NCBI GenBank assembly: GCA_023150835.1
Contig: JAKLKB010000063.1
Coordinates: 1 to 54,762, forward strand
Length of the DNA: 54,762 nt
DNA from: Myxococcota bacterium
GTDB taxonomy: Bacteria; Myxococcota_C; UBA6777
Direction of reading: 5' to 3'
The position numbers were made by a program, and so were the translations under genes. The notes below the pieces were generated by a model, which saw only the letters and a program-made list of their open reading frames with translations, ran no database searches and had not been told where the DNA came from. This document shows positions 1 to 50,587 of the stretch, one piece after another; position 1 is the stretch's first letter, and the number at the start of each line of letters is the position of its first letter.

Positions 1-151
1 TTTTCACGTACTTCACGGACGGAACTCGTAGAAACTGTTTGCTTTGAAAAAAGCAGCCGTCAAAGCGAACAGTCCGGAGCAGAAACCTCGTTACGCAGGG
101 AAAAAAGAGTCGTGTTGTCAGCGAAACGAATCGATTGAGTGGGTCCAAGTG
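1..151 (-). mobile_element. Partial copy (cut by the window edge) of the 230-bp REP-targeting inner element
   Basis: Reverse complement of 20126-20276 with about 1 mismatch. It ends in GGGTCCAAGTG and is followed directly by the target CACACCTGT-CTGCCCCTAC. Confidence 0.85.
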
Positions 152-203
152 CACACCTGTCTGCCCCTACATTTTTACGATAACACAACGGGCGGATTTC
201 GTA
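152..203 (+). repeat. Right half of a ~110-bp REP-containing MITE-like element
   Basis: CACACCTGTCTGCCCCTAC...GGCGGATTTCGTA matches the right part of the copies at 10119, 11713 and 47534. Confidence 0.85.
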
Positions 204-299
204 TCACCCCCCCCACACGCTCAGATCATAGGCAACATAAAAAGAACTCGACTCTTCAGAAACATTTGAAAGCTGCGTTGCAGTGGGGTCCGAAGTGCC

Positions 300-10118: not shown

Positions 10119-10230
10119 TACGATACCCGCAAGATGCGTGATCGAAGGATCGTGCGTAGATGCCCTACGGTTGGGCAGCCACACCTTGCTGCCCCTACGT
10201 TTTATGATCACACGATGGACGGATCTCGTA
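10119..10230 (+). repeat. ~112-bp MITE-like element with internal GTAG-type REP hairpin
   Basis: TIRs TACGATACCCG / CGGATCTCGTA; core GGGCAGCCACACCTTGCTGCCCCTAC; TAA on both flanks. Confidence 0.85.
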
Positions 10231-11712: not shown

Positions 11713-11824
11713 TACGATATCCGAGTGATCTATGATCGAAGGATAGCGCCCAGACGCCCTGTCCTTGGGCAGCCACACCTGTCTGCCCCTACGTTTTACG
11801 ATCACGCTCCCTGCGGATATCGCA
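11713..11824 (+). repeat. ~112-bp MITE-like element with REP hairpin
   Basis: TACGATATCCG...GGGCAGCCACACCTGTCTGCCCCTAC...CGGATATCGCA. Confidence 0.85.
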
Positions 11825-12070: not shown

Positions 12071-12183
12071 TACGATATCCGCCTGTTGTGTGATCGTATA
12101 AATGTAGGGGCAGACAAGTGTGGCTGCCCGATTACAGGGCGTCTACGCACTCTTTTTTGTTTACACATCACTCGGATATCGTA
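12071..12183 (-). repeat. ~113-bp MITE-like element with REP hairpin, inverted orientation
   Basis: TACGATATCCG...GTAGGGGCAGACAAGTGTGGCTGCCC...CGGATATCGTA. Confidence 0.85.
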
Positions 12184-18878: not shown

Positions 18879-20039
18879 ATGAAGCAACTCATTGAGCTTA
18901 TCCACGAATATCAAAACCTTAGCCGCAAGCGCAAGCGCTCAAACCAGCCGCTCAGCGAACCAGAACAAGCACGCCTCGATGAACTCCGCCTGTATCTCGA
19001 TCAACATCTGCGCAACGAACACAACGCACACAACGCACACAACGCACACAACGCACACAGCGCACACAGCGCACACAACGCACACAACGCACAACGCCAC
19101 CGCCAAAGCCGACCGCGCATTCAGCCCATCAACCTCGAAGAAACTTACCGCGACCTTGATGCGCTCTCTCTCCAAGCCCCCCAAACAGAGAGATCCGCGC
19201 CTTCCACACAATCACCAGTCTATCATGCCCCATCTTCCGCGCCTTCCACACAATCACCTGCTTACTGCCCCCCATCTTCCGCGCCTTCCACACAATCACC
19301 TGCTTACTGCCCCCCATCTTCCGCACCCTCCACACAATCACCCGCTTACCGCCCCCCATCTTCCGCACCTTCCGCTCAATCAACCACCTATCAGGCTCCA
19401 TCTTCCGCACCTTCTCTTCCAACAAGGCCCGAAGATGCGCCCTACATTCCCTCGGGGCCTTCGCTTCCCGCCGCATCTCTCGAAGTCCTCGACCTTCAGC
19501 GCCTGCGTGAACAAATCGAACACCCCAAACGCACCCATACCGAACAACCCCAACCCGCGTTCCATCCCCCAAGCCATACCAGTATCCACTCGCTCCGCCA
19601 TCTCTCCAACCAAGGCCCTTCTTCGATCGATCAACTCCCCGAAGCCTCTGCACTCAAAACATCTCGCTCTCAACCTCACCCCTCTCAACCCCCCGTCCCT
19701 CCGTCAAATACATCGTCCCAAGACCGCTGGCACTTTCTTCCACGCCCCGCCACCCACGCCGAGGCAGAGGCATTACCTGTTCGCGTTCATTCCCCTTCCA
19801 CCGCCGGTATCGTAGAGCACGACCTTACTCACCTTGGCCTCGAACTCAACCTCCCCGAAGAAGAGACCTCTCACCCCCATTCGTCTCCCTTTGGAACCGC
19901 CGCACCTTCCGCGCTTTCTCTTCCCTTGTTGATCGAACTTCGACGTCTCGAACACAAGCGCCGTCGAAGCCCCCTCGCCGCTCACGAAGAAACCCGCTTT
20001 CGCGAGATCATGGATCAAGTGTTTCTCGCCATCGATTGA
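18879..20039 (+). CDS. Hypothetical protein: two similar helical end modules joined by a His/Pro/Ser repeat linker
   Basis: N-terminal LIELIHEY..LSRKRKRS.QPLSEPEQARLDEL resembles C-terminal LLIELRRLEHKRRRSPLAAHEETRFREI; internal NAH and SSAPSTQSPAYxPP repeats. Confidence 0.6.
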   Translation: MKQLIELIHEYQNLSRKRKRSNQPLSEPEQARLDELRLYLDQHLRNEHNAHNAHNAHNAHSAHSAHNAHNAQRHRQSRPRIQPINLEETYRDLDALSLQAPQTERSAPSTQSPVYHAPSSAPSTQSPAYCPPSSAPSTQSPAYCPPSSAPSTQSPAYRPPSSAPSAQSTTYQAPSSAPSLPTRPEDAPYIPSGPSLPAASLEVLDLQRLREQIEHPKRTHTEQPQPAFHPPSHTSIHSLRHLSNQGPSSIDQLPEASALKTSRSQPHPSQPPVPPSNTSSQDRWHFLPRPATHAEAEALPVRVHSPSTAGIVEHDLTHLGLELNLPEEETSHPHSSPFGTAAPSALSLPLLIELRRLEHKRRRSPLAAHEETRFREIMDQVFLAID

Positions 20040-20055
20040 TGTGATCTCTGAGTGA

Positions 20056-20406
20056 TACGATATCCGTGTGATGTGTGATCGAAGGGTCGTGCGTAGACAC
20101 CCGATTGTTGGGCAGCCACAGCTGTCACTTGGACCCACTCAATCGATTCGTTTCGCTGACAACACGACTCTTTTTTCCCTGCGTAACGAGGTTTCTGCTC
20201 CGGACTGTTCGCTTCGACGGCTGCTTTTTTCAAAGCAAACAGTTTCTACGAGTTCCGTCCGTGAAGTACGTGAAAAAGTAGGGGCAGACAGGTGTGGCTG
20301 CCCAATCACAGGGCGTTTACAGATCGCAAACGAATGGCATGAGTTGGTCCAAGTGCACACCTGTCTGCCCCGACCTCTTTGCGATAACGCAACGGCGAAT
20401 TTCGTA
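20056..20406 (+). repeat. MITE-like REP element interrupted by a nested 230-bp insertion
   Basis: Outer ends TACGATATCCG (20056) and CGAATTTCGTA (20406); the REP core is split at CACA(G/C)CTGT. Confidence 0.85.
20126..20355 (+). mobile_element. 230-bp non-autonomous element with ~28-bp imperfect TIRs and a 9-bp target-site duplication
   Basis: Ends CACTTGGACC(C/A)ACTCA....ATTCGTTT in inverted orientation; flanks CACAGCTGT (20117-20125) and CACACCTGT (20356-20364); second copy at 1-151. Confidence 0.8.
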
Positions 20407-20415
20407 CGAGTCCTG

Positions 20416-22110
20416 TCATGCGTCGGACTGTGCGGCGATCGACAACGCAAGACGTGTCGCTTCGGAGCGGTTGATCTTTCCGTGATTTCCACGCGGTAGC
20501 GCGGAGACCACAAAGACCTGACGAGGCCGTCGATACCCCGCCACATGCTCTGCAGCCCATACCAAAAAGGCTTCTGTATCAAACTGTTCGGGAGATCGTT
20601 TGGGGATCAGCAACGCCACAGGACGCTCTCCCAAGCGACTGTCAGGCAATCCCACCACCGTCACTTCTGCGACTTCGGGATACGAACGTAAGATCTCTTC
20701 AACTTCTGCGGGGAAAACCGAGAAGCCACCGACCTTTAAGCGATCGCGACTCCTTCCCACAAACGAGAACAACCCGCCCGGCCACACCCGCGCAAGATCG
20801 CCTGTGGTAAACCAACCGTCGGCATCAGGCCCTGCATCCGCGGCTCCTTCGTAGGTCTTCAAGACGCCTGCTCCGCGCACTTGAAGCCCGCCCACTCGCC
20901 CCCATCCCACAACACGGCCTTGTTCGTCGACGGCACGCACTTCAAAACCCGGCAAAACAAACGACAACACGGGCAGATCGATCTGGTGGCTTGGCGAGGA
21001 AGGGTACAACCGCAACGCCATCGGCCCCGAAAGTTCGACCATTCCGTAGATATCCGCAAAGATCGCTGTTCCCAACGGTCGCCCAAAAACTTGGGTAAGC
21101 GCCCCATAACGCTGGAAACGCCTCGCTCGATCAGGCGGCATCACGTCCGCCCCACTGACCCACATCTGCACACTTGACAAGTCACGCTCCGCAGCCCCCG
21201 CACGTTCGAGATCTGCGTACATCGTCGGCACACCCACGATCACGTTGGGCCGTTCCACTTCCAATCGGCTCAAAAAAACATCGGGTTCAAAAGATTCCAG
21301 ATGCAGCAACCGAATCCCTGCACACAACGCCGCAAAATGCGCACTCAGGCCCATGACATGCGTTAGAGGAAGCGCACACATCAGCAGATCGCGGCCTTTT
21401 CGCCATCCCACTTGCAGGCCCACAGGGGCCGCCAACAAACGCCCCAACGTTCCCAATAATCCTGCGCTCGTCAATGCCGCAGCCTTCGGCTTTCCAGTCG
21501 TTCCCGAAGTACACAACAACAACGCGACTTCGTTCGGATCGTCGGTTCCCATCGCATGGATCGACTCTGTGGTGTGAGACGCCATCCAATCCACCAGATC
21601 GCGCACCTGTTTTGCCTGTGGTTTTGCTCCGTGGCCGCTCCAGCAACACCGCAGATCGGACCGCAACAATCCTCCCTCGTGCATACGACCCAACACATCG
21701 CCGTCGGCAACAACCGCCTGCGCTTGTGTCACCTCCAAGATCGCGCCCAACTCTTCGGCCTTGAGGCGTGCGTTCACAGGAACAGGAACCCCTCCTGCCC
21801 TTGCCACCGCAAACAAATGAAAAAGAACGTCGATGCGGTTTTGCAAGATCACCAAGACCCGTCGCCCTTCGCCGTGACCGAACGCTTCGTGCGCTGCGGC
21901 AAGTCGTGCGATATCTTCTTCCAACGTCGCGTACGTCCACGAAGACCGATCTTCTAGGCCAAGCGGCGCACGATCCGCAAAGATCGCGGGCCGCTCCCCA
22001 TAGCTTTCCGCCAACACAGAAGTCAAACGACCCAACCCCACCCCTCCGCCAAGCAACATCTGACCGACGGTTCGCCAATACTCCGGGATCTGCACGATCT
22101 TCTCCATCAT
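20416..22110 (-). CDS. Class I adenylate-forming enzyme (long-chain fatty-acid-CoA ligase-like)
   Basis: CTSGTTGKPK, YGMVE, TGDL, GRSRDRLKVGGFSVFPAEVE and LPRGNHGKI motifs. Start taken at MMEKIV. Confidence 0.9.
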   Translation of the reverse strand: MMEKIVQIPEYWRTVGQMLLGGGVGLGRLTSVLAESYGERPAIFADRAPLGLEDRSSWTYATLEEDIARLAAAHEAFGHGEGRRVLVILQNRIDVLFHLFAVARAGGVPVPVNARLKAEELGAILEVTQAQAVVADGDVLGRMHEGGLLRSDLRCCWSGHGAKPQAKQVRDLVDWMASHTTESIHAMGTDDPNEVALLLCTSGTTGKPKAAALTSAGLLGTLGRLLAAPVGLQVGWRKGRDLLMCALPLTHVMGLSAHFAALCAGIRLLHLESFEPDVFLSRLEVERPNVIVGVPTMYADLERAGAAERDLSSVQMWVSGADVMPPDRARRFQRYGALTQVFGRPLGTAIFADIYGMVELSGPMALRLYPSSPSHQIDLPVLSFVLPGFEVRAVDEQGRVVGWGRVGGLQVRGAGVLKTYEGAADAGPDADGWFTTGDLARVWPGGLFSFVGRSRDRLKVGGFSVFPAEVEEILRSYPEVAEVTVVGLPDSRLGERPVALLIPKRSPEQFDTEAFLVWAAEHVAGYRRPRQVFVVSALPRGNHGKINRSEATRLALSIAAQSDA

Positions 22111-22210
22111 CGCCCACGCTCCTCCATCCGTGAATTCTTGACAAGATGGCGCGTTGTACCCCACATCCCCCCTCAAAAACAAGCCTTCTTCTCCAAAAAA
22201 CACACACGAT

Positions 22211-24850
22211 TTAAGGCGAGGGCGAAGCACCAAGTACTTTGCCGAGGGTCTTTTCTATGCCAACGATGTTGTAGGCCCCGACTTGATACAACACCACGCG
22301 GCCTCGGTGAAGCAAGGCAAAGGTCGGCGTTGCACGGATGCGAAACTGTGCCGAGAAGAACCCGTTGGGATCGGAGACATGGGCAAAAGGCATCTTGCGG
22401 GGATGTTGTTTGAGCCAGTCGTCTAAGACTTGCAAACTTTCGGAGCTTACCGCAACGACTTTGAATCCTTTTGAAGCGTACTTTTTCTGCCAGCGACGGA
22501 TCATCGGGATGGGAGGTTTGCACGGGCCGCACCATGTGGCCCAAAAGAAAAACAGCACAGTATCTTTGGCGAGCGCAGGCAAGGCTTCGCGTGCGTAAGG
22601 TTTTTGGGGATCGTGTGGAAAAGTATGGATCGTCATCCACGAACGGATCGATTGCCCGAGAACAGGGGGATGTTTGAGTTGCGGCTCAGTCGTCATGCGT
22701 TGCAGTTGGAGAGACAACGTGAGGCTTTTTCCTTCGCGCAAGACAGCCATCGGTAAGGGCTGATCTGCCGGCGCAAGCATCACTCGCTCACGGATCTCGT
22801 AAGGTTCGTGCAGTGGAGCCCCCCCCACTTCAACGACCGTATCTCCCACACGCAAGCCCGCTTTTTCCGCAGGACTCCCCACCCCAACGAGGCGCACCAA
22901 CACCGCCCCTTTCGGAAGCCCCATCGCCCCTTGCAAGGGGCGAAATTGAATCCCCAACCAAGAAGGCAACGGCGGAGACTTCATCGCCAAAAAAGGCTTC
23001 TCTGCGGCAGAAGGCGCAGGTTTCGGCCCAAGAGGCGTCGCCTCACAAGCCAGCAGACGCGCTAAACCTCCTCGATAAGCCCGCACTTCTGGGCGTGCAT
23101 CCGCCTCCAAAAGAAAACGCCCAGCCATCCGATACAACAGATGATCGATCCGCAACAATGCTGCACTTTGGATCTGGAGCCAAAAGACATAACGGTGCAT
23201 CTCTTGTTCTTTTTCGTGCATCTGCTTGAGACGCAGCGCAAGGCCGGGAACGCCTTGAACATACCGCAAGAAGCCGTCCCGCAGGCGCTCACCAATTGCC
23301 GAATCTTCGGCATCTCCGCCCCCTCGATAGGGTTCGCGCACACACGCGATCCGCTCCTGAGACCAAGAAGGCCCATGCCACACCAACTGCGCCAGCGTAG
23401 GCGTAGCATGGGTGTGTTGTGCCAAGCGTTGGAGCTCCATCCGCACCAAATGCTGCATCTTTGGGTTTTGTGCGTACCAACGTTTGAGGTGATGATCGCG
23501 AGCGGTACGAAACAACGTCTGCCATTGATTTTCAACATTTTTCCACCACTGATAGCGCTGTTGCAAAACCTTTTGCTGTTCGTGTGAAGCGGCGATGCTC
23601 ACAGGACGGGGAAGATCAAAACGCCGAGCGACCGCCAAGATCATCGCTTGATCTTCTTGTGTGGCGGTATCTTTTTGCGCGGCATAACGGCGCAACAGTC
23701 GATCCGTCAAGTCGGTCAATGTCACCCCTTGTTCGCGGGCCTCGGCCTCCAATATCGAACGCAGATAACTATCCGAGCTGCGGATCGGGACGTCAGGCGT
23801 CCGATCTGTCAAAAGGACGGTGCGATGGGCTTCATCAAATGTTTTTGCGTGTTTCATCGCCAAGATAAAGTGATAAGCATGCCCAATCGACTCCCCAAGC
23901 CGTGTATCCGCAAAACACCCATACGCGGGGCGATCGGGCGTGGTTGCAAAAAAGCCACAGCGATCTCCACTCGGTACATTCAACTGCGAGGGTTGTGGGT
24001 AGATGCTCCACGCAAAAGAACCCGAAAAGCATTGCGACATCACAGAGATCACACGGCGCGCTCCAAAAGGCTGCAACATCCGATGGTAGGACTGTACATC
24101 AAGGTTATCTCGCCACAGCGAGATGTAATGATTGCGCGTCGAAGAATCGCGATTTTGCGTCCCATGATCGGTGACAAACATCAACACAGGGCGCGGATCT
24201 TCGGGCGCTATCTGCTGTGCGATACGACGGGTTTGATCGCGCAACACCTCTTGCGTGGCCGCCAGTAGGCGCGCCCCTTGGATCTGTGTATTCACCAGTT
24301 TTGGCTTCTCCGCAAAGAACCGACTTTCGGGGATGTGCGCAAACAGTTCTGAACCGACGACGTTGCGAGAGCGCAAGACCAATAGATCTTCGCTTGGATC
24401 GTCGCCATCGGACGCAAACACCGTCATCGCAGGCGAAGACATCCCCCGCCCTTGCAGCGTCCCAAGCATCATCCGCAGATACAACACATGCGAATAAAAG
24501 TTGAGTTGTGGCTGCGCTCCACCGTTGAGCAAAAAAGCATGCGCCAACGCAGCCGAGCGCCAACGCCCTCCTGCCTGTGGCGCTCCAGCCAGACGCTCAG
24601 GCTGTGGACGCAGGGGAGGCGTCACGGGACGAGGTGGTGTCGCAGGACGCACCAACGATGTGCTGGCTGTAGGCTTTTTCGGCCAATGCGCGTGAACGTC
24701 CACCTCTTTGCGTTGTTGTACCCGTGTCGTCGTGCAGGCCCCCAACAACCCCCATCCAAGCCCCAAAAGCCCCAAAACCACCCCGATACGTTGGGATGGT
24801 GATGTCTGAACACGTTGAGATATCTTCATTTTCGCCCTTCCTCTCGCCAT
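22211..24850 (-). CDS. Lipoprotein with clan CD (C13/caspase-like) peptidase domain, helical region, PDZ domain and C-terminal TlpA-like thioredoxin
   Basis: Lipobox LLGAC; FVTDHG and VMSQCFSGSF (His-Gly/Cys dyad); WLGI...GSPAEKAGLRVGD PDZ; FFWATWCGPCK thioredoxin. Start could also be 24829. Confidence 0.75.
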   Translation of the reverse strand: MARGRAKMKISQRVQTSPSQRIGVVLGLLGLGWGLLGACTTTRVQQRKEVDVHAHWPKKPTASTSLVRPATPPRPVTPPLRPQPERLAGAPQAGGRWRSAALAHAFLLNGGAQPQLNFYSHVLYLRMMLGTLQGRGMSSPAMTVFASDGDDPSEDLLVLRSRNVVGSELFAHIPESRFFAEKPKLVNTQIQGARLLAATQEVLRDQTRRIAQQIAPEDPRPVLMFVTDHGTQNRDSSTRNHYISLWRDNLDVQSYHRMLQPFGARRVISVMSQCFSGSFAWSIYPQPSQLNVPSGDRCGFFATTPDRPAYGCFADTRLGESIGHAYHFILAMKHAKTFDEAHRTVLLTDRTPDVPIRSSDSYLRSILEAEAREQGVTLTDLTDRLLRRYAAQKDTATQEDQAMILAVARRFDLPRPVSIAASHEQQKVLQQRYQWWKNVENQWQTLFRTARDHHLKRWYAQNPKMQHLVRMELQRLAQHTHATPTLAQLVWHGPSWSQERIACVREPYRGGGDAEDSAIGERLRDGFLRYVQGVPGLALRLKQMHEKEQEMHRYVFWLQIQSAALLRIDHLLYRMAGRFLLEADARPEVRAYRGGLARLLACEATPLGPKPAPSAAEKPFLAMKSPPLPSWLGIQFRPLQGAMGLPKGAVLVRLVGVGSPAEKAGLRVGDTVVEVGGAPLHEPYEIRERVMLAPADQPLPMAVLREGKSLTLSLQLQRMTTEPQLKHPPVLGQSIRSWMTIHTFPHDPQKPYAREALPALAKDTVLFFFWATWCGPCKPPIPMIRRWQKKYASKGFKVVAVSSESLQVLDDWLKQHPRKMPFAHVSDPNGFFSAQFRIRATPTFALLHRGRVVLYQVGAYNIVGIEKTLGKVLGASPSP

Positions 24851-37232: not shown

Positions 37233-37335
37233 TACGATATCCAAGCGATGTGTACGTACGCAGACACCCTGTAATAGGGCAGCCACGGCGGGCTGCCCCT
37301 ACATTCGTACGATCAGACAACGGGCGGATCTCGTA
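37233..37335 (+). repeat. MITE-like element with REP hairpin
   Basis: TACGATATCC...GGGCAGCCACGGCGGGCTGCCCCTAC...CGGATCTCGTA. Confidence 0.85.
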
Positions 37336-50477: not shown

Positions 50478-50587
50478 TCCCACACAAGCCACGCCTCAAG
50501 GCCGAAATCTTGACTTTTATTGGGCAGCCACGAGGGGCTGCCCCTACAGATCCCACACAAGCCACGCCTCAAGGCCGAAATCTTGAC
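50478..50587. repeat. Perfect 37-bp direct repeats flanking a 36-bp REP-containing spacer
   Basis: TCCCACACAAGCCACGCCTCAAGGCCGAAATCTTGAC at 50478-50514 and 50551-50587; the spacer contains GGGCAGCCACGAGGGGCTGCCCCTAC. Confidence 0.85.

Follow-up and report, generated by a model that had tools for sequence, protein, structure and literature searches.

A probable IS4-derived MITE targeted to REP palindromes in the genome of an uncultured Myxococcota bacterium

Insertion sequences (ISs) that target repetitive extragenic palindromic (REP) sequences have been described from five IS families. In the text available from Tobes and Pareja (2006; PMC1525189), these include IS1397/ISKpn1 and ISPsy8 of the IS3 family, IS621/ISPpu9/ISPpu10/ISPa11 of the IS110 family and ISRm22 of the IS4 family, which is found at the palindrome axis. 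Here, we analyze a comparable association in a 54,762-nucleotide stretch of DNA (the window) from a Myxococcota bacterium, namely contig JAKLKB010000063.1 of assembly GCA_023150835.1, which is contig C232 in our numbering of this 7.56-Mb, 239-contig assembly (G000). In it, a REP hairpin is split by a 230-bp segment, which we term E1. Most probably, E1 is a MITE (miniature inverted-repeat transposable element) that arose by internal deletion from an IS4-family IS and is targeted to REP dyads, with a further REP unit nested inside it. Like the REP-targeting ISs as presented in the available text of PMC1525189, all or most of whose copies lie in REP palindromes at a fixed position (the symmetry axis for ISRm22 and ISPsy8), the family of E1 occupies a defined position in its targets. 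Unlike them, most of its copies are MITEs, several REP classes are used, REP or MITE units are nested within the elements and the host is an uncultured member of the Myxococcota. The duplication of 8–10 bp also exceeds those given in the same text for ISRm22 (6 bp), ISPsy8 (3 bp) and ISPpu9/10 (2 bp). Since REP targeting by an IS4-family element is already on record in that text, the phenomenon is of a known type; the reciprocal nesting of repeats, the arrays of right ends and the persistence of the habit across diverged IS lines are modest additions. A literature search, exclusive of supplements, that combined the IS4 family, MITE and repetitive extragenic palindromic returned nothing, and a broader query on nested or self-targeting elements gave nothing relevant among the papers listed.

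For the IS4 family, the available portion of De Palmenaer et al. (2008; PMC2266710) gives as hallmarks the YREK motif, a single open reading frame (ORF) and a duplication close to one helical turn in length. It further describes the 9-bp duplication of IS10 and IS50, the CAT ends of the IS231 and ISH8 subgroups and cut-and-paste transposition with some insertion specificity for IS231A. The family described here shares with IS4 members the single ORF, a DDE enzyme with the Y-2-R-3-E-6-K signature, the helical-turn duplication and ends starting with CA(C/T), but differs in its target, a pair of REP stems with an 8–10-nt spacer. IS231 prefers GGG-N5-CCC and IS186 prefers GGGG-N6/7-CCCC; their sites would then be the closest counterparts of a symmetric, GC-rich target. 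MITEs derived from ISs, such as the MIC231 type and MITEAba12, are short non-coding elements that keep the ends of an IS and are mobilized in trans. E1 would be like them in all these respects, but differs in having REP loops as its target and an entire foreign repeat unit in its interior.

A sequence-only reading of the window had proposed a non-autonomous element with ~28-bp imperfect terminal inverted repeats (TIRs), flanked by a 9-bp duplication and inserted at one exact site of a REP. A find_repeats-type scan recovered arms of 28 nt that are 86% complementary (20126–20153 and 20328–20355), and the flanking 9-mers agree at eight of nine bases; the sequence to the left of E1 is ...TTGGGCAG-C-CACAGCTGT, and that to the right is CACACCTGT-CTGCCCCGAC (Table 1). 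E1 runs from its left-type to its right-type end on the plus strand; the parent IS would accordingly have its reading direction on the minus strand. The window copy is a deletion variant: 54 bp that are present in all other copies are missing between positions 196 and 197, and the canonical length is ~280–285 bp. Over positions 1–196, it is 95–99% identical to about ten other copies. The same reading had assigned the near-identical sequence at the start of the window to an independent event in the opposite orientation, and this is borne out. That sequence is the reverse complement of positions 1–151 of E1 (150/151 identical), and its left-type end adjoins CACACCTGTCTGCCCCTAC, the side of the REP that the right-type end adjoins at 20355, which places the two copies in opposite orientations. 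As the unique DNA beyond the REP arms of the two copies is unrelated, they represent two insertion events and not one duplication, and a private end variant common to both (CACTTGGACCC) marks them as sister copies from two separate insertions.

Across the assembly, BLAST and pattern scans found 17 left-type and 25 right-type ends of E1. A degenerate TIR pattern had 61 matches in the genome against one for the reversed control, and a slightly relaxed pattern had 64. E1 is multi-copy, 230–482 bp long and without a transposase gene of its own. It is the commonest MITE of the family; further versions with the same ends are E2 (192 bp, on contigs C197 and C56, without an internal REP) and E3 (311 bp, about eight copies, containing a class-3-like palindrome). 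The choice of target is strongly biased: GGGC[AG]G ends 8–10 nt before the junction at 44 of the 61 ends as opposed to 0.32% of all genome positions, and the remaining 17 ends mostly show near-variants of this motif. The occupied sites fall into three or more REP classes that differ in their loops, apart from a few that are not REPs. Class 1 is GGGCAG-N10-CTGCCC with several loop alleles (659 instances in the genome as GGGCAG-N8-11-CTGCCC), class 2 is GGGCGG-TTCGCGAA-CCGCCC (100 as GGGCGG-N7-10-CCGCCC) and class 3 is of the GGGGGCAG-CCCCC type (about 60). Among the 17 left ends of E1, 10 lie in class 1, three in class 2, two in class 3 and two elsewhere. A perfect duplication flanks four of the nine two-ended elements (C97, 8 bp; C197, 9 bp; C220, 10 bp; C235, 9 bp), in addition to the 8/9 match of the window copy, and a 30-bp remnant on C16 is bordered by a 10-bp repeat. 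The cut position is fixed relative to the GGGCRG stem, and the duplicated 8–10 bp correspond to the hairpin loop. Thus, tabulating junctions over the genome, as the sequence-only reading had suggested, showed that the other copies are not randomly placed and that targeting to REP loops is real. Its "one exact site" holds for the position of the cut relative to the stem, but not for the length of the duplication, the single REP class or the exclusive use of REPs.

A model without any insertion would take the REP halves as the longer inverted ends of a composite element, with the two window copies produced by duplication, inversion or misassembly. The palindromic nature of the REP does make the flanking halves resemble extended inverted repeats, many contigs break within E1 and no public contig spans the whole locus. 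Against this, the similarity between copies stops exactly at CACTTGG, past which lie differing REP classes, differing loops and a few non-REP sequences. Moreover, empty REPs outnumber occupied ones more than tenfold, the direct duplications vary from copy to copy, and the unique DNA past the two window REPs is unrelated. Four public sequencing runs also bear on the point. They come from four studies of activated-sludge, sludge and aquatic metagenomes, and one run may represent the source sample. The runs were searched as Logan contigs, which break in repeats. The right junction is bridged in contigs of all four, which start at 20328–20342; three of these contigs reach 20800 and the one from an RNA library reaches 20673. 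We consider the model without insertion to have next to no probability. The RNA-library contig over positions 1–196 of E1 has a depth of 41 versus 17.4 and 6.7 in the flanks, a difference that cannot establish a discrete RNA because E1 is multi-copy and the contigs show no ends.

The descent of E1 could be traced through a full-length relative. In metagenome contig L063, a pattern scan found two inverted TIR matches that bound an IS of 1534 bp (360–1893), which encodes a single 429-aa ORF without a frameshift (P0001). This protein matched PF01609 (DDE_Tnp_1) with 63.5 bits (cut-off 23) and NF033592, 'IS4 family transposase', with 138.8 bits (cut-off 115). It has the Y-2-R-3-E-6-K signature YMRRWDIEMAFRTLK at residue 297 and candidate catalytic aspartates D133 and D204. 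With these residues assigned by motif and not by alignment, the D–E spacing is ~100, at the low edge of the 100–150 range stated in the available portion of PMC2266710. There are 866 relatives of P0001 at E ≤ 0.001; the best two are metagenomic (98% and 70% identical), the rest are at most 52% identical, and the nearest named ones are generic 'IS4 family transposase' entries at 46–49%. E1 matches this IS at 28 of 30 positions at the 5′ end and at about 75 of 100 aligned positions at the 3′ end. A tblastn search with residues 414–429 of P0001 gave the same match, at 68.8% identity, in nine E1 copies including the second window copy, where it spans 59–106. The E-value of 4–8 makes this match weak on its own, and we accept the 16-codon remnant because the DNA alignment of E1 to the IS supports it. 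The alignment at both ends together with the last 16 codons indicates that E1 arose by internal deletion from a close relative of this IS. The expectation of the sequence-only reading that a longer, transposase-encoding element with the same TIRs should exist was therefore correct, although that element lies outside the window's assembly. The pattern matches at two further metagenome loci (L064 and L066) are chance occurrences in coding DNA. Five PF01609 hits in the window's assembly were rejected as partners: none has a TIR core within 2.5 kb, and the terminal repeats, read for three of them, differ.

The related genomes extend this picture. The sister genome G001 has 15 TIR matches, nearly all 50–150 nt from contig ends. 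Its contigs break 69–153 nt into the IS with ends identical to the IS of L063, and six contig ends encode the last 22–32 residues of P0001 at 100% identity. The full IS is multi-copy in this genome; attempts to extend it from the contig ends found no overlapping contig. Of the 11 flanks read in G001, 10 are REP-type and nine are class 1. A third genome of the genus, G002, has an IS whose protein is 48% identical and a 195-bp MITE, both with CATCTGTTCCAACTAAT as their ends, the two sitting in neighboring copies of a tandem REP array. Both are inserted in the REP GGGCGG-GCCTCTGTGC-CCGCCC with a perfect 10-bp duplication, GCCTCTGTGC, equal to the loop. The REP-dyad habit is conserved across these two diverged IS lines on different REP sequences. 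A pattern scan of genome contigs gave, beyond G001, only one chance match in coding DNA of a Thermoguttaceae metagenome-assembled genome, and a search at the level of the phylum covered the same six genomes.

These observations suggest the following course of events. Having retained the two ends for transposase binding and the final codons of the gene, E1 would depend on mobilization in trans. The cognate DDE transposase (429 aa, YREK) would bind the ~28–34-bp ends (CACTTGGACCAACT..ATTCG), excise the element and reinsert it through staggered cuts separated by about one turn of the helix, as may be extrapolated from IS10, IS50 and IS231A. It would be biased toward the dyad of GC-rich palindromes GGGCRG-N8-10-CYGCCC, that is, the stems of the GTAG-footed REP hairpins of this lineage; an insertion at that dyad would make the 8–10-bp duplication equal to the hairpin loop. 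A related proposal departs from this solely in the mode of target recognition: the enzyme might respond to an extruded hairpin or cruciform, or the bent shape of a palindrome, so that any GC-rich palindrome tip could serve as a target. Insertion takes place at or beside the dyad, and the targets do vary in both loop and stem, from classes 1–3 to the GGGGCGTAT... type (at metagenome loci L063, L065 and L027) and GGCGGGC...GCCCGCC in G002. In addition, the 135-nt REP unit at an empty site of the window adopts a long hairpin fold (−21.7 kcal/mol, z = −3.37, none of 200 shuffles as good). On the other hand, all classes have GGGC(A/G)-type stems at a fixed distance of 8–10 nt, and some sites, such as that on C220, have a single good half-site. 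The class 3 site on C235 has its duplication 9 nt past GGGGCAG, off the center of a long palindrome, a position more in keeping with a ruler on the sequence than with the tip of a hairpin. Recognition by shape is possible on this evidence, though we regard it as unlikely.

For the internal target-like sequence, the sequence-only reading had offered a captured fragment or, speculatively, a targeting guide. The string GTAGGGGCAGACAGGTGTGGCTGCCCAATCACAGGGCG that begins at 20278 comprises a GTAG foot and the REP hairpin that goes with it, GGGCAG-ACAGGTGTGG-CTGCCC at 20282–20303. It lies in a REP unit whose right arm has, apart from its start, been lost with the 54-bp deletion. When these 54 bp are present, the insert is a complete REP unit with both arms, and positions 118–203 of E1 match ordinary REP units in the genome and in G001. 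The internal target copy in E1 is captured or nested DNA, in the form of a whole REP unit. Its similarity to the host REP is such that the halves of the latter can pair with it (20093–20126 with 20287–20320, 34 nt, 79%; 20273–20296 with 20356–20379, 24 nt, 88%).

Could the internal REP, transcribed or otherwise used in the manner of a bridge RNA, direct insertion into matching REPs? It is nearly identical to the window's own target, and the IS110/IS621 elements target REPs through an encoded RNA according to the available parts of PMC11208160 and PMC11187229. The likeness to those elements, as the former source presents them, lies in insertion that is specific to REPs and in non-coding sequence resembling the target, but IS110/IS621 use a DEDD recombinase and have no TIRs, whereas the partner of E1 is an IS4-family DDE transposase with TIRs and 8–10-bp duplications. 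Nor do internal and target classes correspond. E1 carries one internal class and yet its left ends are spread over all the categories counted above, and the IS, which carries a class 2 insert, sits in class 1 at most of the G001 flanks read. Elements that lack an internal REP also find the dyad: E2 occupies a class 1 loop with a perfect 9-bp duplication, and the G002 IS, with a leader of ~73 nt devoid of a REP, still sits in a REP dyad. Finally, an Rfam search of 19500–21000 gave nothing but a sub-threshold microRNA match (21.2 bits against a cut-off of 70). A guide function is accordingly an extremely remote prospect, and this tempting reading can be set aside.

The nesting is reciprocal. Between the IS end and the start codon of the IS in L063 (414–535; IS 55–174) lies a 116-bp palindromic MITE, flanked on both sides by TTTGA, with ends TAGGACTTACGCAGTT and a central 20-bp perfect palindrome, GGGCGGTTCGCGAACCGCCC. 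This TIR-bounded MITE is the class 2 "REP" itself. The window's genome contains 28 full-length copies among the matches listed, at 86–98% identity (e.g., C136:63929-64047), and many of the copies listed show short duplications of roughly 5 bp. In the IS, the 116-bp MITE stands directly before AAAAAAGGAGC-ATG, and in E1 the class 1 REP unit stands beside the homologous TTTGAAAAAAG remnant. Two kinds of small repeats, then, nest in each other. Under the IS4-derived MITE account, the internal REP of E1 would be a unit nested in the former leader of the parent IS, dispensable for targeting, that makes each copy a landing site for its kin. It would also be the probable source of head-to-tail arrays of right-end modules, in which the internal loop and right arm of E1 itself come immediately after a right end, with a period of 122 bp (C64, C214, C97, C235 and C235b). 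Such arrays probably stem from E1 landing in the internal REP of another copy, with later loss of the duplicated left parts; a search of the assembly for an intact E1-in-E1 nest found none. The element on C97 has two right modules and a perfect duplication, which means that it moved as one unit. Elsewhere, at C7:15995-16476, a copy of E1 has three tandem 57-bp repeats from the right half of the internal REP, and its flanks lack a matching duplication.

It is also conceivable that the nested leader repeat is kept by selection, be it as an insulator against read-through, a control on transposase translation or a decoy and landing pad. Two independent acquisitions lie close together in the leader, the 116-bp MITE in the IS and the class 1 REP in E1, and palindromes recur in the family, with the class-3-like one in E3 and a REP in its commonest MITE. 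However, E2 and the G002 IS have no such insert, the repeats number in the hundreds and the site of the 116-bp MITE is AT-rich, so that chance insertion in an AT-rich leader is plausible. We judge selective retention to be rather improbable. The same low standing applies to the wider conjecture that repeated capture of hairpins at one leader spot is selected and controls or insulates transposase expression, that the copies serve as landing pads and that the DDE enzyme reads the same GTAG-GGGC foot as the REP tyrosine transposase. If true, it would amount to a self-nesting and self-limiting dynamic between two classes of selfish repeats.

Several observations weigh against the account of E1 as a REP-targeted, IS4-derived MITE. 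First, no transposase with E1 ends was found in the window's assembly, by TIR scans with up to three mismatches, a search with P0001 or local tblastn, and no TIR pair there is more than 482 bp apart, so that the assembly reveals no source for recent mobility. With a completeness of 93%, it has no contig shorter than 2.4 kb, and a collapsed contig of a 1.5-kb IS could thus have been dropped from it. Second, no duplication accompanies four of the nine two-ended elements, namely the one on C7 and every two-ended copy of E3 (C109, C120 and C180). The full IS in L063 likewise lacks a direct duplication and has inverted flanking repeats instead, belonging to a fourth palindrome class (GTAGGGGCGTAT..GCA..) found on both sides of it (340–359 and 1894–1910), in L065, in L027 and in G001. 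We read these cases as the likely outcome of ectopic recombination between copies, a process to which the hybrid flanks of some ISRm22 copies are ascribed in the available text of PMC1525189. Third, about six occupied ends have the loop flipped relative to the arm, as compared to 5 flipped versus 256 among the empty REPs; an inversion of the whole insert via the REP arms would explain them. Fourth, the right-end arrays could arise otherwise than by self-insertion. Fifth, among the contigs of the four public runs, there is none that crosses the left junction or covers the element from end to end, and none has an empty-site joint that skips E1. Finally, with class 2 being itself a TIR-bounded MITE, "REP" is in part a label of convenience.

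The class 1 hairpin has a GTAG foot, with 569 instances of GTAGGGGCAG-N9-10-CTGCCC on both strands, and a GTAG foot 5′ of an imperfect palindrome is described for the REPs of Escherichia coli in the available portion of PMC3333891. We also found a 254-aa ORF (C113:53266-54030, equivalent to L044 1450-2214, minus strand) that resembles the REP-associated tyrosine transposases. It scores 58 bits with NF047646, below the cut-off of 80, and its HUH and Y motifs are visible, although it is interrupted by a long GQAQI tandem repeat from GGGCAG-rich DNA. Two REP hairpins lie ~300 bp from its 3′ end. Overall, the REP label for the target palindromes is only partly secured. On C8 and C12, there are mosaic repeats in which a class 1 hairpin is followed directly by a class 2 palindrome (…CTGCCCAAGAATCGGGCGGTTCGCGAACCGCCCCTAC…), an arrangement like that of bacterial interspersed mosaic elements.

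The family provides a clear further case in which an IS4-type element, presumably of the cut-and-paste kind, and its MITEs target REP dyads, here in an uncultured activated-sludge lineage, and yields a simple testable target rule, GGGCRG-N8-10-CYGCCC with the loop duplicated. In addition, 21 of the 64 TIR ends reach a contig end within 300 nt, and these elements hence explain many of the contig breaks in these assemblies.

Table 1. Coordinates of the features discussed; positions without a prefix are those of the window.
Feature	Coordinates	Strand	Remarks
E1, window copy, 230 bp (MITE)	20126..20355	+	left-type to right-type end on the plus strand
Left TIR, CACTTGGACCCACTCAATCGATTCGTTT	20126..20153	+	3′ end of the parent IS (alignment of the 3′-terminal 100 nt of E1 with the 3′-terminal 110 nt of the IS)
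Right TIR	20328..20355	-	5′ end of the parent IS; canonical copy 28/30 identical
Putative transposase remnant, last 16 codons of the IS4-family gene	20171..20218	-	coordinates transferred from the tblastn match at 59-106 on the second window copy
Nested class 1 REP unit in E1	20247..20321	+	left arm, GTAG foot, hairpin, start of right arm
Target-site duplication, left copy, CACAGCTGT	20117..20125		8/9 bases match the right copy
Target-site duplication, right copy, CACACCTGT	20356..20364		loop of the host REP
Host REP unit, one arm	20055..20116		ends in the stem GGGCAG at 20110-20115; unit consensus
Host REP unit, other arm	20365..20407		stem CTGCCC, complement of the GTAG foot (here CGAC), arm ending TTTCGTAC
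Second E1 copy (positions 1-151)	1..151	-	truncated by the contig start
Host REP of the second copy	152..205		loop copy CACACCTGT, stem CTGCCC, CTAC, arm
Unoccupied REP hairpin	11767..11788		same loop allele, GGGCAGCCACACCTGTCTGCCC then CTAC; empty-site reference
Flipped-loop ends (G000)	C1:3200, C63:124, C235:49905, C37:25301, C95:138, C5:33132		
MITE and diverged IS of G002	L069 995-1189 and 1400-2790		neighboring copies of a tandem REP array

In the surroundings of E1, a Pfam search of the neighboring ORFs identified only an AMP-binding enzyme gene (20416–22233, minus strand); the ORFs to the left of E1 matched no Pfam family, and a location between convergent genes is accordingly not established. 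Besides the empty-site reference, the window has four more empty REP hairpins with other loop alleles (10173–10194, 12108–12129, 37277–37298 and 50522–50543). At two places in the genome, C53:18034 and C87:79588, 13–20 nt of the left end are fused to a REP right arm at short shared strings (AATCG and CCAAC), and these remnants look like microhomology deletions of former insertions.

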